DNA from: Vicingus sp.
Lineage (GTDB): Bacteria > Bacteroidota > Bacteroidia > Flavobacteriales_E > Vicingaceae
NCBI GenBank assembly: GCA_036171675.1
Contig: JAVHRO010000080.1
Span: 10,413-74,412, forward strand
DNA: 64,000 nt
Direction of reading: 5' to 3'
The translations under genes and the position numbers were made by a program. Below are positions 24,057 through 30,104 of this stretch, in pieces. The number at the start of each line of letters is the position of its first letter. The stretch's first letter is position 1. The notes below the pieces were generated by a model. That model saw nothing but the letters and a program-made list of their open reading frames with translations, had not been told where the DNA came from and made no database searches.

Positions 24057-24857
24057 TTATTTAAAGATAAAAAACTTGCCTAAAACGACTAATGGTAAAA
24101 TTTCGAGCGTACAAATGTACAAAATAATATATAAAAATGAAACTTTAAAGGAAATACCCATTACAAAAAAACGCATAAATCTGATAATTAGACTAATAAG
24201 AATTAATGGGATAATGATATAGAATAAAATGGTATGACTAGCAATATGAGAGAAATACATTAGCGCAATAGCTGGGATTAGTAATAAGCCTAGCAAATAA
24301 TTATAAAGTAACAAATTGTAGGAATATGAAGGAAGTATTTCAACTTGAGAAAAAATAATGGCTAAAAGAGCGTTAAACAAAAATTTAAGTGCATAGCTCA
24401 ATATAACTAAACCAACTATTTGAAGGAATAATAATAAACCCACATCAAGCCGACCATAACGAATACTTACGGAATAAATTAACAAAGAAGTAGTGAATAA
24501 AAAAATCAAGAATAACCCTAAATTTACTCGATGAAAAAACACTTTTTCATCTCTAACAACTTCATTAGCGGAGTAATATGAAAATAACGACTTGTAAATT
24601 TGATTAAACCGATTTATTCCAAATGCCCTTATAAACGCCAATATTAAAACGGAAATTGTTAATATTATTGATGGCCATGTTGTGTTCACCGCAACATTTA
24701 TAGTTGGTTGAAAAGATATTTTTTGATCTTGTTTTAAAAGTTTTGTAGTATTAACCTTAACTTTTCGAACCGGGATTTTGCTGGTATTGCCTAATTCAAA
24801 AGCCACTGAATCTTGAACTATGGTGTCGTTTTGTATGATGGTGGTTGGGGTTGGCAC
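24057..24857 (-). CDS. DUF4271 domain membrane protein
   Basis: Multi-TM; C-terminal YIILYICTLEILP; upstream of hemD in the same orientation. Confidence 0.8.
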   Translation of the reverse strand: MPTPTTIIQNDTIVQDSVAFELGNTSKIPVRKVKVNTTKLLKQDQKISFQPTINVAVNTTWPSIILTISVLILAFIRAFGINRFNQIYKSLFSYYSANEVVRDEKVFFHRVNLGLFLIFLFTTSLLIYSVSIRYGRLDVGLLLFLQIVGLVILSYALKFLFNALLAIIFSQVEILPSYSYNLLLYNYLLGLLLIPAIALMYFSHIASHTILFYIIIPLILISLIIRFMRFFVMGISFKVSFLYIILYICTLEILPLVVLGKFFIFK

Positions 24858-25108
24858 TTCAATAAAACTATTTGTGTGTGTTTACTTTTTTCGAACATAA
24901 ATTTCTGAGCAATATTCAACTTTTATTCATTCTAAAAACGTTTTCTTGCTAACTTACATAGTAAGACTAACCGCATCAATTTGTGGAATGAAATAAATAA
25001 AATTACTCATTCCTACAAAAATAGTTTATTTGAAGGGTTTGGGAAATAATTGTTTTAAATAATTATTTAACCCGTTATGCATTTAGAAGAATTTTTAATA
25101 AAAAATTT

Positions 25109-25151
25109 GTCACTTCGATTGTCTCGCAGTAATGCGGGATGTATCAAGAAG
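25109..25151. repeat. REP-like repeat, copy 2
   Basis: gtcacttcgattgtctcgcagtaatgcgggatgtatcaagaag; matches 1523-1565. Confidence 0.65.
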
Positions 25152-25286
25152 AGAAAAAACTTTGTAAAATTCCATTTAAAATTTGGCGAATCTTGTTTTT
25201 ATACAAAACAATATATTGTATAATGAGTATCGTTTCACAATATTCAATCGAATTTCAATTTTATTGTAAAAAAATCAAAATAAAAT

Positions 25287-25316
25287 TTTGTAATTAAAAT
25301 TTTTGTTTTACTTTTG
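25287..25316 (+). promoter_or_regulatory. Bacteroidota sigma-A promoter of the met operon
   Basis: TTTG (25287-25290), 18 nt spacer, TACTTTTG (25309-25316). Confidence 0.65.
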
Positions 25317-25358
25317 CCCCATCAATCATTTACAAGTTCTGTAAAAAGTTTTTGTAAC

Positions 25359-25486
25359 TGTTTATAAAGAAGAAGCGAGAGATTAGGCTCTATGACCTTC
25401 TGGCAACCAACTTAAAGTCCCGATAAAAAGGGATTGGAAAACAGGTGCCAAATCCTAACCACGTCTTAGGCGTGGGAAAATAAATA
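25359..25486 (+). ncRNA. SAM-I (S-box) riboswitch
   Basis: P1 tgtttat/ataaata; aaagaagaagcgagagattaggctctatgacc P2 kink-turn region; tggcaacc...ggtgcca P3; aatcc; ccacg/cgtgg P4; upstream of metY. Confidence 0.88.
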
Positions 25487-25495
25487 AATTACAAA

Positions 25496-25651
25496 ATGAA
25501 AACAAAAGCAAAAAACCAACTCAACAACTCCGAGAGATTTTCGAATCTTAAGAACGGGATTACTTCGGTCTTCCAACTTCGGTCTTCCGACTCTTTTACT
25601 GAATCCTTTTCAGCAAAAATGATGTGTTGCATGTGCTGTTGCATGTGTTAA
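25496..25651 (+). CDS. Met/Cys-rich leader peptide (uORF, 51 aa)
   Basis: MKTKAKNQLNNSERFSNLKNGITSVFQLRSSDSFTESFSAKMMCCMCCCMC*; last 10 codons all Met or Cys; AT-rich initiation context. Confidence 0.75.
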   Translation: MKTKAKNQLNNSERFSNLKNGITSVFQLRSSDSFTESFSAKMMCCMCCCMC

Positions 25652-25783
25652 TACATCTTTATTTCAAATAACATTCTCGAAAATTAAGATGTAGGTTTTC
25701 CTAAAGGAACAACCATATCCTGTAATAGCTATTTTTTCAAAAATCAGTAAACCAATTAATTATTTATAAATCTTAAAAACTAA

Positions 25784-27133
<1,350 letters not shown>

Positions 27134-27136
27134 ACC

Positions 27137-28186
27137 ATGAACACTCAACAGTTTAAATACAACAACAAATTTCAATTGGAATCGGGAAGAACACTTCCTG
27201 AATTCCAATTGGGATTTACTACATTGGGCAAACTAAATGCTGCAAAAGATAATGTCATTTGGATTACTCATGCGTTAACAGCCAACTCCAATCCTGAAGA
27301 ATGGTGGAATGGTTTAGTGGGCAAGGGAAAGTTTTTTAATCCTGAACAACATTTTATTGTTTGTGCCAATATGTTGGGGTCGCCTTATGGTTCAACCAAT
27401 CCTTTATCGGTAAACCCGCAAACAGGAAATAAGTATTATCATCATTTTCCAACACTCACCATTCGAGATATTGTAAATGCCTTTGAGTTACTGCGTCAAT
27501 ATTTGGGAATTATCAAAATCAATACGTTGGTAGGTGGTTCATTGGGCGGACAACAAGCTTTAGAGTGGGCAATACAACAACCTGAATTAATAGAAAACCT
27601 GTTTTTAATTGCCACCAATGCCCAACATTCGCCATGGGGAATTGCTTTTAACGAAAGTCAGCGTTTGGCGATAAAAGCCGACAGAACATGGTTTTCATAC
27701 AGTGATGATGCCGGAATAAAAGGTTTAAAGGCTGCCCGGGCAATTGCTTTGTTGAGTTATAGAAACTACCAAACCTATCAAATTTCACAAGAAGATTTGG
27801 AAGAAAAAACAGATGATTTCAATGCTGCTTCTTACCAAAATTACCAAGGCGAAAAATTGGTAAATCGGTTTAATGCTTATTCATATTGGCAGTTGTCAAA
27901 AGCAATGGATAGCCACCATGTGGGACGAAACAGAGGGAGTATTGTTCAAGCATTAAATTTAATACAAGCAAACACGTTGGTAGTCGCAATTGAGTCTGAT
28001 GTGTTGTTTCCTGTTTCTGAGTCGGTTACGTTGAAAGAAAATATCAAAAATAGTGAGTTGAAAATTATAGATTCGCTTTACGGACACGATGGATTTCTAT
28101 TAGAAACCGAACAATTAAAAAACATTTTTGAAAATTTTTACATCACCAAAAAACTAAAAAAAGAAATTTATGAGTACACCGACTAA
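27137..28186 (+). CDS. metX: Homoserine O-acyltransferase MetX
   Basis: HALTANS, GGSLGG nucleophile, SDVLFP, GHDGFL. Confidence 0.93.
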   Translation: MNTQQFKYNNKFQLESGRTLPEFQLGFTTLGKLNAAKDNVIWITHALTANSNPEEWWNGLVGKGKFFNPEQHFIVCANMLGSPYGSTNPLSVNPQTGNKYYHHFPTLTIRDIVNAFELLRQYLGIIKINTLVGGSLGGQQALEWAIQQPELIENLFLIATNAQHSPWGIAFNESQRLAIKADRTWFSYSDDAGIKGLKAARAIALLSYRNYQTYQISQEDLEEKTDDFNAASYQNYQGEKLVNRFNAYSYWQLSKAMDSHHVGRNRGSIVQALNLIQANTLVVAIESDVLFPVSESVTLKENIKNSELKIIDSLYGHDGFLLETEQLKNIFENFYITKKLKKEIYEYTD

Positions 28187-29387
28187 AAACATAGGGCTTA
28201 TAGGGTTTGGCACAGTTGGAAATGGGTTCTACAACTATTTAGTACAAAACAACGAAGACAAGCAATTGGCAACCGTAGTTATAAAAAATGCATCGAAAAG
28301 TAGAATACCTGATACGTTGAATTTTACAACCGATGTAAATGAAGTTTATAAAAACAAAGAAATAAACACCGTTGTAGAATTAATCAGCGATGATAAAGAG
28401 GCATTCAACATCGTAAAAAAAGCCTTATTACAAGGCAAAAGTGTAGTTTCGGCAAACAAAAAAATGATTGCTCACCATTTGGAAGAGTTGGTGGAATTGG
28501 AGCAACAATTCGGCGGTAAATTTTTATACGAAGGAGCTGTTGCTGGTAGTATTCCCATCCTAAAAATCATTAACGAACACTATGCTTTTGATGAAATTAC
28601 CGAAATACGTGGCATTTTAAACGGAACATCCAACTACATTTTAACTCAACTTTTCGAGAAAGGAATGGATTATAAGGAAGCATTAAAACAAGCTCAAGAA
28701 GCTGGATTTGCAGAGGTTAATCCAGCATCAGATGTAGAAGGTTATGATGCACTTTATAAGTTGTTAATTTTAGCTGCTCATGCTTTTGGTAAATTTATTT
28801 TACCCGAAAAAGTATTAGCTATTGGTATCAACAATATAAAACCAGTTGATATTACTTTTGCTAAAAGGAATAATTTAACCATTAAATTGTTAGGTTCTGT
28901 CAAAAACATAAACAATAAACTTACCTTAAGTGTTATCTCAACTTTTGTTGATGAAAGTGACGAATTATACCCTATTAAAAATGAATACAATGCAGTTGAA
29001 GTAATTTCTAAAAACTTAGGTTCTCAATTGTATAAAGGTAAAGGTGCCGGGTGCTTACCTACAGGGCATGTGGTTTATACCGATTATAAATCTATTGAAA
29101 GTGCAAAATATACTTATAAAAATACCTCATCGGGAAAACGAATAAAACACGAAACCAATCAAACTATTTGGTTGTATTCTGATAAGATTGCACTTTTAGA
29201 GAACTATTTAGATGATGTTGTTTTCTTTGGTGGTTCTCAAGGTTATGGCAACATTAAAATTGCCGATTTAATAAAAACAAAAAATTTAATACATATTCAC
29301 AATATTTCAATCGTTGCAATACCTGAAAAAATAGTAAAAAAGTTAACTTTGAACATTAAAAATATTGAGCTAATAGAATATGTTTAA
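28170..29387 (+). CDS. hom: Homoserine dehydrogenase (stand-alone)
   Basis: GLIGFGTVG, VVSANK, YEGAVAGSIP, GILNGTSNYIL, DVEGYDA..K. Confidence 0.92.
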   Translation: MSTPTKNIGLIGFGTVGNGFYNYLVQNNEDKQLATVVIKNASKSRIPDTLNFTTDVNEVYKNKEINTVVELISDDKEAFNIVKKALLQGKSVVSANKKMIAHHLEELVELEQQFGGKFLYEGAVAGSIPILKIINEHYAFDEITEIRGILNGTSNYILTQLFEKGMDYKEALKQAQEAGFAEVNPASDVEGYDALYKLLILAAHAFGKFILPEKVLAIGINNIKPVDITFAKRNNLTIKLLGSVKNINNKLTLSVISTFVDESDELYPIKNEYNAVEVISKNLGSQLYKGKGAGCLPTGHVVYTDYKSIESAKYTYKNTSSGKRIKHETNQTIWLYSDKIALLENYLDDVVFFGGSQGYGNIKIADLIKTKNLIHIHNISIVAIPEKIVKKLTLNIKNIELIEYV

Positions 29388-29417
29388 AATGGCTTTTTTG
29401 TTTTATTACGGTGCAAT

Positions 29418-30104
29418 ATGATTAATAAGGTTAAAAGAATTGTTTCGGAAGCTGAAATAGAGTTGTTAAATATTAAATACAAAAAACTATCGGTAGAAGA
29501 GCGTGTGGAGGAATTGTATAACGATTTTGAGGCAAAAGAAATTATGTTAACCTCTTCATTTGCGGCTACATCAGCGTTTTTATTGCATGTTTTTTCTAAA
29601 ATTAATTCAACCCAAAAAATTTATTTCATCAACACAGGTTACCATTTTAAAGACACCTTAGCGTACAAAGAACAATTGATTAGACTGTATCAATTAAATG
29701 TAGAAGATGTTTCTGCTGAAAAATGGGAACACGAATTTACTACCAAAGATGAAACGTGGAAAAAAGATCCAGACATGTGCTGTTCAATTAATAAAGTAAA
29801 ACCATTGGAATTAATAAAGGAGCGATATACCGTTTGGGTTTCTGGTTTGATGGAATGGCAAAGCGACCATAGAGCCACTTTAGATATTTTTGAAGACCGT
29901 GGGGGAATATTAAAATTTTATCCATTACTGGATGTAACTAAACAAAAAAGAGAAGAATATATCAAAAAAAACAATCTACCATTTCATCCATTAATTTCGA
30001 AAGGATATTCATCAATTGGTTGTAAACACTGCACAATCCCAGGTGATGATAGAGAAGGAAGATGGAACAATAACCCCAAAACAGAATGTGGGCTACACTT
30101 ATAA
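29418..30104 (+). CDS. cysH: APS/PAPS reductase CysH
   Basis: TSSF, NTGYHF, CC...CKHC, GRW, C-terminal ECGLH. Confidence 0.92.
   Translation: MINKVKRIVSEAEIELLNIKYKKLSVEERVEELYNDFEAKEIMLTSSFAATSAFLLHVFSKINSTQKIYFINTGYHFKDTLAYKEQLIRLYQLNVEDVSAEKWEHEFTTKDETWKKDPDMCCSINKVKPLELIKERYTVWVSGLMEWQSDHRATLDIFEDRGGILKFYPLLDVTKQKREEYIKKNNLPFHPLISKGYSSIGCKHCTIPGDDREGRWNNNPKTECGLHL

Follow-up and report, generated by a model that had tools for sequence, protein, structure and literature searches.

The classical leader-peptide attenuators are trpL, hisL, leuL, thrL, and ilvL of Proteobacteria, and the Bacteroid-trp leader represents this type of regulation in the Bacteroidetes. Here we describe the leader of the sulfur-assimilation operon metY-metX-hom-cysH of Vicingus sp. 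(Vicingaceae), which is encoded on a stretch of 64,000 nucleotides (nt), in the following called the window (GenBank assembly GCA_036171675.1, contig JAVHRO010000080.1, positions 10,413 to 74,412 of the forward strand). It contains an upstream open reading frame, or uORF, that ends in a run of Met and Cys codons and that begins directly behind a riboswitch for S-adenosylmethionine (SAM) of the SAM-I class. With the classical attenuators it shares a short leader open reading frame (ORF) of a biosynthetic operon that is rich in codons for the pathway product, as well as regulatory codons in region 1, a stop codon beside region 2, and mutually exclusive helices 1:2, 2:3, and 3:4. In contrast to them, it has a riboswitch fused to it, it is predicted to sense Cys and Met, neither of which is represented among the classical examples, and its 3:4 hairpin lacks an adjacent U-tract, whereas its 1:2 hairpin has one.

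The principle of an attenuating uORF with Cys codons is already known from mycobacteria and Rhodobacterales. In mycobacteria, leaderless polycysteine small open reading frames (sORFs) are Cys-responsive attenuators of the downstream operon genes, and a stalled ribosome prevents the attenuating fold (Canestrari et al., bioRxiv 10.1101/834739); riboswitches or Bacteroidetes are not mentioned in that study. Like these sORFs, the window uORF has consecutive Cys codons upstream of sulfur-related genes. However, it is not leaderless, but lies behind a candidate promoter and a 128-nt aptamer and follows about 170 nt of untranslated sequence, Met codons are mixed into its Cys run, and it comes from another phylum and shows no homology to the mycobacterial sORFs. 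In Rhodobacterales, uORFC-8-2 upstream of cysS contains conserved Cys codons in a stem that is followed by a terminator, and this arrangement has been read as ribosome-mediated attenuation (Brewer et al., 2021, PMC8632094). It differs from the window leader in that it has two Cys codons, a tRNA synthetase gene as target, and no riboswitch.

A parallel for a ligand-sensing aptamer and an amino acid-codon uORF in one leader is the mgtA leader of Salmonella, which, as reportedly found by Park, Cromie and Groisman in 2010, combines a Mg2+ riboswitch with the proline-codon uORF mgtL. The context of this leader is described in PMC6460261 and PMC12360218. In both leaders translation of the short ORF reports, or in the window would report, how well an amino acid is supplied, and the two elements act, or in the window would act, on downstream transcription. 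The mgtA leader differs in ligand, amino acid, and phylum, its uORF is located inside the alternative stems of the riboswitch, and its output is Rho-dependent, whereas the window uORF starts right after the P1 stem and extends for about 150 nt. For Mycobacterium tuberculosis it has been shown that a B12 riboswitch controls the translation of a uORF, and that the gene behind it is expressed according to this translation (Kipkorir et al., 2024, PMC11260477). That leader belongs to another riboswitch class, and its uORF, which acts by suppression or termination-reinitiation, is not presented as an amino acid sensor. In translational SAM-I riboswitches, the 3' side of P1 contains the ribosome binding site (Barrick and Breaker, 2007, PMC2258182). 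The window leader would resemble them in that the 3' strand of the predicted P1 contains or adjoins its initiation region, and a SAM-stabilized P1 would block initiation; it differs from them in that the controlled ORF would be the sensor uORF instead of an enzyme gene, and in that there is no Shine-Dalgarno sequence to sequester. Cys-rich precursors of ribosomally synthesized and post-translationally modified peptides (RiPPs), e.g., SCIFF, are not a match, as a family-model hit at the thresholds used and an adjacent maturase are both missing. A full-text literature search, which left most subscription journals outside its scope, retrieved no account of a leader, in Bacteroidota or elsewhere, that combines a SAM riboswitch with a Cys/Met leader peptide.

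The uORF encodes the peptide MKTKAKNQLNNSERFSNLKNGITSVFQLRSSDSFTESFSAKMMCCMCCCMC, followed by a stop codon. Its last 10 codons specify MMCCMCCCMC, i.e., four Met and six Cys, and the start Met is the only other Met or Cys of the 51 residues. An in-frame TAA is present at 25481-25483, and therefore the ATG at 25496 is the sole possible start; it has an A at position -3 and A-rich surroundings. Between the end of the uORF stop codon and the metY ATG at 25790 there is a gap of 138 nt. The length of the uORF, the composition of its tail, the 138-nt gap, and the gene order metY-metX-hom-cysH had been stated in an initial annotation that was based on the window alone, and translation and gene annotation showed them to be correct. 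The peptide matched no Pfam or NCBIfam family at the thresholds used, the curated RiPP precursor models of NCBIfam included, and a protein search of 5.8 billion protein clusters gave no annotated homologue. As the uORF is absent from this collection of predicted proteins, it is evidently missed by gene callers.

The initial annotation had also asked for a comparison across Bacteroidota, in the form of a search for ORFs with Met/Cys tails upstream of metY. For this comparison a sample of 80 metY loci from public genomes was used, comprising Sphingobacteriales, Cytophagales, Chitinophagales, Saprospiraceae, Hymenobacter, Marinilabiliales, and others. A locus was scored as positive when an ORF with an ATG start and at least 20 codons, with at least five Met or Cys among the last 10 residues, was present within 400 nt upstream of metY. 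Such a uORF was found at 43 of the 80 loci, which belong to several orders. The same test was negative for the opposite strands of all 80 upstream regions and for 50 dinucleotide shuffles, and among 1946 further 400-nt windows taken from these loci a single one was positive. Scanning the 3.06 megabases of the genome of origin for short ORFs with at least six M or C among the last 10 residues revealed three candidates, including the window uORF; the other two were discarded as out-of-frame pieces inside long ORFs. The uORF is, with high probability, real, conserved, and regulatory.

The pattern of conservation is that of a codon run rather than that of a protein. In nine leaders of the genus, the tails read (M)MMCCMCCCMC, MCCMCCCIC, or, in one leader, MCCCFSH, while the middle of the uORF is variable in sequence as well as in length (41-59 codons), with length differences that are all multiples of three. 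Other genera of the family have tails such as MMMCCMCCCMY, CCGLMCCCMCCCMC, MMHSMCCCCMC, and HCMCWCCCR. Across the genus, the family, and several orders the Cys/Met run is the sole conserved part of the peptide, it is always C-terminal, and in most cases 90-220 nt separate it from the metY or metX that follows. In the relatives, third-position changes in the Cys codons are confined to U and C. The tails of 49 relatives consist of 57% Cys and 13% Met residues, and both UGU and UGC are used. Cys dominates across the phylum, and the Met/Cys-balanced tail is a trait of the family of the window. The earlier proposal of a ribosome-stalling leader peptide that senses sulfur amino acid supply has received strong comparative support by the conservation and C-terminal position of the run, the in-frame indels, and the conserved alternative hairpins described below, but the balanced mixture as such does not extend to the phylum.

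Several variants of the leader were encountered. In four of the nine genus genomes the riboswitch-uORF leader is situated directly before metX, and metY is not present at the locus. At one locus (L068) metY is preceded by two Met/Cys-rich uORFs in tandem, and the leader of a Carboxylicivirga (L078) is devoid of SAM-I and dominated by Met, with the end MMMCMMMTR. In seven Chryseolinea/Ohtaekwangia-like leaders a peptide motif, LRAY(L/F)..L..SI, is conserved in the middle of the uORF, which could reflect a constraint at the RNA level or an element of the nascent peptide.

The second component of the leader, the SAM-I aptamer, ends 9 nt upstream of the uORF AUG. It had been omitted from the initial annotation, which treated the leader peptide as a stand-alone sensor. 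A regulatory uORF is indeed supported, but the riboswitch fused to it most likely gates its translation, so that the leader would have at least two inputs. A first regular expression for SAM-I was too strict and recognized 21 of the 80 loci; it was replaced by Rfam scans, which detected the riboswitch upstream of metY at 65 of them. At 42 of these 65 loci SAM-I and a Met/Cys-tailed uORF occur together, and in 39 of the 42 the uORF AUG follows the aptamer at a distance of 1-16 nt, most often 7-10 nt. Three loci (L039, L042, and L048) have the aptamer further away, 325-463 nt upstream of the uORF. A looser test, which accepted any aptamer-adjacent ORF that started with ATG, had 24 codons or more, and terminated before metY, was positive for 55 of the 65 SAM-I metY loci, compared to one of 22 SAM-I leaders of the metH type from the family of the window.

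The terminator-type leaders offer a comparison within the same organisms. The genome of origin has a second SAM-I element (contig C57, 3169-3296) with a classical terminator directly after the aptamer; the contig ends before the downstream gene, and in relatives of the genus the homologue of this riboswitch precedes metH. Likewise, the best-scoring SAM-I elements of the sampled family genomes precede metH and have a terminator directly after the aptamer, and the same is true for those metY SAM-I leaders of Chitinophagaceae that are devoid of the uORF. In the uORF-type leaders, no terminator was found between aptamer and AUG, and therefore the riboswitch has no visible expression platform except the uORF start. 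One family thus contains two output designs of SAM-I for two genes, a terminator type for metH and a uORF type for metY. In seven leaders of Cyclobacteriaceae the ATG is located 7-9 nt past the aptamer, and the uORF has 25-52 codons with 1-3 Cys. It may be that translation of the uORF as such contributes to the output of the riboswitch even where a Cys run is lacking.

A structural link between aptamer and uORF start is also predicted. In a local fold of 25335-25510, the P1 stem (25359-25365/25480-25486) is stacked on an extension of 8 base pairs (bp), with pair probabilities of 0.54-0.90. A minimum free energy (MFE) fold of the whole leader, which paired the P1 flank with distant sequence, was treated as an artefact, and local segments were folded instead. 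In relatives, P1 extensions of different sequence are formed, e.g., GUUUGUGAUU/AAUUACAAA, UGAUUUGUAAU/AUUGCAAA, and UGCAAU/AUUGCA. Between the two 12-nt flanks of the aptamer, the median complementarity amounts to -2.6 kcal/mol for 49 leaders of the uORF type, in contrast to -0.85 kcal/mol for 26 leaders of the terminator type (Mann-Whitney p = 1e-5). In Bacteroidetes, where no Shine-Dalgarno pairing takes place, mRNA structure and an A at -3 modulate initiation (Baez et al., PMC6847099). A P1 stem with an extension over the start region fits the translational type of SAM-I, yet the ORF under control would be the uORF. SAM binding would, according to these folds, hinder uORF initiation.

The Met/Cys codons are themselves part of a set of alternative hairpins. 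The structural claims cover the clade of the window and are based on an alignment of nine leaders. The first hairpin, H1 (regions 1:2), has a z-score of -2.75 versus dinucleotide shuffles, and 91% of its cells are paired in the nine clade sequences. For the alternative helix 2:3, which excludes H1 and the base of the second hairpin, H2 (regions 3:4), the value is 86%, versus 34-57% with slid partners, and one genus leader (L088) preserves the helix as ACAUUACC/GGUAAUGU. H2 has 87% paired cells and three pairs that are changed on both sides. For H1 and H2 together, 89% of the cells are standard pairs, versus 30-54% with slid partners, and six pairs are changed on both sides. When the Met/Cys codons were masked, as they would be by a stalled ribosome, the predicted fold switched to 2:3 and the outer 5 bp of H2 were lost; a mask for a ribosome at the stop codon restored the full H2. 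Regulatory codons in region 1, a stop codon at region 2, and mutually exclusive helices 1:2, 2:3, and 3:4 are found in this clade, and the predicted topology of the leader is that of a trp-type attenuator.

In the leaders of other genera of the family, a hairpin equivalent to H1 is present in seven of nine cases, with z-scores from -2.3 to -5.5; in two leaders (L149 and L152) the hairpin falls after the Cys/Met run. A pyrimidine- or U-rich tail after the H1-equivalent hairpin is likewise present in seven of the nine, and overall the codon run pairs with the stop region in 33 of 49 leaders. In two sister-genus leaders the homologous H2 runs directly into a tract of U5-U6. H1 with its U-rich tail is the more constant feature compared to H2 with a U-tract, and the U-rich tract behind H1 of the window could serve as a pause or termination tract. 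A single consensus structure was not obtained, as RNAalifold analyses of Mucilaginibacter, Pedobacter, and Chryseolinea-like groups resulted in lineage-specific structures. As a separate observation, a small hairpin, CUGAA..UUCAG (25599-25613), lies immediately 5' of the Met/Cys run, and in five leaders from several distant lineages a hairpin similarly ends just 5' of U-rich UGU codons. Such a hairpin may act as a pause signal for RNA polymerase and synchronize it with the ribosome.

From these results it seems likely, though well short of assured, that the leader is a composite switch in which SAM gates the entry of ribosomes into the uORF and ribosome stalling at the Met/Cys codons blocks attenuating folds. 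With SAM bound, the closed P1 and its extension would hinder 30S entry at the uORF, because Bacteroidota, which lack Shine-Dalgarno pairing, need a start region that is A-rich and free of structure. With the uORF untranslated, H1 and H2 would form, and transcription would be attenuated. At low SAM, ribosomes would enter the uORF and reach the ten consecutive Met/Cys codons, which represent the 5' arm of H1. If Cys-tRNA or Met-tRNA were scarce, the ribosome would stall on the run and H1 would stay open; region 2 would then pair with region 3, the base of H2 would be lost, and RNA polymerase would continue into metY. If both tRNAs were charged, the ribosome would reach the UAA within region 2 and leave, H1 and H2 would form, and the transcript would be attenuated. 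The transcription stop itself might occur after H1 and the U-tract, after H2, or via Rho.

Several observations weigh against this composite switch. A simple terminator scan of 24800-26000 found none, and H2 in the genome of origin is a poor intrinsic terminator, as the nearest U-run (25732-25737) is 12 nt past the stem. Helix 2:3 is weak alone (-4.2 kcal/mol) and takes away only the outer 5 bp of H2. AUG/UGY repeats self-pair by G-U wobble, and codon content alone could give part of H1. The signal of the P1 extension is modest at 39 metY loci, with a mean z of -1.1 in a cruder shuffle test. Outside the family the downstream folds differ by lineage, and a canonical terminator is often undetectable. 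A hairpin-plus-U finder yielded few true terminators at 39 distant loci and was confounded by the U-rich UGU codons; therefore, no common terminator is claimed outside the family. Furthermore, an AND logic of low SAM and low Cys/Met would keep the operon off during Cys shortage when SAM is ample.

The modules of the leader are separable, as L078 and L068 have the uORF module but no SAM aptamer, the aptamer is remote from the uORF at the three loci mentioned above, and SAM-I without a uORF also exists. This would suit two independent switches in series that are not coupled, namely, a SAM riboswitch that acts by a mechanism which the sequence does not reveal, e.g., via Rho or RNA decay, and a uORF that is a self-contained Cys/Met attenuator, their proximity being of no functional importance. 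This explanation is unlikely, because the narrow spacing of aptamer and AUG at 39 of 42 loci leaves no space for another expression platform, the complementarity of the P1 flanks that reaches the AUG is specific for the uORF type, and the terminator retained by other SAM-I leaders of the same genomes has been lost in this type.

It could also be argued that the uORF is nothing but the expression platform of the riboswitch, that any translation melts an H1 terminator or blocks Rho, and that the Met/Cys codons are a by-product of a UG-rich hairpin and not a tRNA sensor. The U-rich tract directly after H1 in the whole family would be in agreement with this, as would the self-pairing of AUG/UGY repeats and the Cyclobacteriaceae leaders, in which the aptamer-adjacent uORF has just 1-3 Cys. 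However, the run is conserved as codons across lineages that differ in nucleotide sequence, GC content, and downstream structure, and the proportions of Cys and Met in the 49 tails are far from the needs of a hairpin alone. In addition, the run invariably shares the frame of the aptamer-adjacent AUG and occupies the C-terminus, and leaders without a riboswitch still have it. A role as platform only is therefore distinctly improbable.

A functional small Cys-rich peptide that is merely co-transcribed with metY, e.g., for metal binding, as a sulfur store, or as a RiPP precursor, might be expected to be encoded by a conserved ORF such as this one, which has 32-59 codons and a Cys-rich C-terminus, and in some Cytophagales-like loci the LRAY(L/F)..L..SI motif of the middle part. 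Yet conservation in the phylum is limited to the Cys/Met run, the remainder varies and even tolerates an inserted repeat, family-model matches at the thresholds used and annotated homologues are missing, no maturase or exporter is adjacent, and the position between the riboswitch and metY or metX is fixed, all of which makes such a peptide very improbable. A frame that merely happens to be open in an AT-rich spacer, for which the 51-codon ORF on the opposite strand might be quoted, is refuted by the negative shuffles, the negative opposite strands of all 80 relatives, and the single genuine case in the genome of origin, and its probability is negligible.

The features of the leader and the operon are compiled in Table 1.

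Table 1. Features of the metY leader and operon (positions in the window; all on the plus strand).
Feature	Position	Strand	Basis and remarks
Candidate Bacteroidota-type promoter: -33 TTTG (25287-25290), 18-nt spacer, -7 TACTTTTG (25309-25316)	25287-25316	+	Regular expression pattern
P1 extension, 5' strand UUUUGUAA	25350-25357	+	Pairs with 25489-25496 in the local MFE fold
SAM-I riboswitch aptamer (RF00162)	25359-25486	+	cmscan 63.9 bits, gathering score 44.4, E = 2.9e-14, full-length model 1-108
P1 extension, 3' strand UUACAAAA	25489-25496	+	Spans uORF positions -7 to +1
Leader-peptide uORF, 51 codons and stop	25496-25651	+	Translation; conserved in genus, family, and phylum
Two copies of the dispersed short repeat CTTCGGTCTTCC, in frame within the variable middle of the uORF	25563-25588	+	Repeat matches in own and genus genomes
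Sensor codons AUG AUG UGU UGC AUG UGC UGU UGC AUG UGU (MMCCMCCCMC)	25619-25648	+	Sequence; UAA at 25649-25651
Hairpin H1 (regions 1:2)	25621-25657	+	5' arm, Met/Cys codons; 3' arm, last codons, stop, and ACAUC; -18.6 kcal/mol
Alternative helix 2:3, 25654-25665 CAUCUUUAUUUC/25679-25691 GAAAAUUAAGAUG	25654-25691	+	Excludes H1 and the base of H2
U-rich tract UUUAUUUC	25658-25665	+	Directly 3' of H1; part of region 2; conserved in the clade
Hairpin H2 (regions 3:4), candidate terminator or attenuating hairpin	25688-25719	+	-10.7 kcal/mol
Operon: metY 25790-27133, metX 27137-28186, hom 28170-29387, cysH 29418-30104	25790-30104	+	Pfam, NCBIfam

The candidate promoter follows the consensus of Bacteroidota promoters, which was used for the regular expression TTTG-N17-22-TAnnTTTG. 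All nine genus leaders have this pattern in the same position, some 45 nt upstream of the aptamer, and transcription would start at about 25322-25326. A sigma-70 promoter scan of the leader gave only background promoters and was superseded by the Bacteroidota pattern. The repeat CTTCGGTCTTCC in the middle of the uORF has seven exact and 24 near copies in the genome of origin and dozens of matches in the genus genomes. It is missing from two sister leaders, and the uORF frame has been preserved despite the insertion. The repeat has a 7-nt period with the variants GACTTCT and AACTTCC, further copies are present on the contigs C6, C14, C56, C99, and C133 of the same genome, and it looks like a family of intergenic repeats similar to repetitive extragenic palindromic (REP) elements. 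The opposite strand is likewise open for 51 codons over the uORF span (25489-25644); we take this antisense ORF to be due to chance, as none of the 80 relatives has an antisense ORF with a Met/Cys tail.

The genes next to the uORF encode DUF4271, hemD, and metY, and in the Pfam and NCBIfam annotation of the neighbours neither a maturase nor an exporter adjoins it. The metY product of 447 amino acids is an O-acetylhomoserine/O-acetylserine sulfhydrylase (TIGR01326, 675 bits), metX encodes an alpha/beta hydrolase of the MetX type, hom a homoserine dehydrogenase, and cysH a reductase for phosphoadenylylsulfate or adenylylsulfate (PAPS/APS reductase; NF002537, 204 bits). The genome is estimated to be 100% complete, and a cysE gene for serine acetyltransferase was not found in it, the best match to TIGR01172 having 30 bits. 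Two CysK-like genes (C79:5348-6250 and C158:32337-33248) are both below the equivalog cut-off; one of them is an open frame of 454 amino acids, which may encode a cystathionine beta-synthase. Cysteine is probably made from homocysteine or by a bifunctional MetY, and because of the absence of cysE the operon probably supplies both Met and Cys. We infer that sulfur enters both amino acids through metY-metX-hom-cysH, which would explain why its leader reads Cys, Met, and SAM.

Beyond the window, we lean, if only slightly, towards the view that in the SAM-I leaders of the sulfur-assimilation operon of Bacteroidota a translated sensor uORF is the expression platform, and that this two-input gate for SAM and Cys/Met is present in several orders. 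If this is true, a riboswitch in a phylum without Shine-Dalgarno sequences regulates by gating a uORF instead of the gene itself. The leader would represent a natural logic gate on one RNA, composed of a metabolite sensor for SAM and a sensor for the charging of Cys and Met tRNAs. It would also add Cys/Met leader-peptide attenuators, which are absent from the classical textbook set, to the repertoire of a major phylum. And, finally, the regulation would be tied to the physiology of these bacteria, which have no cysE and in which the operon probably supplies both sulfur amino acids.

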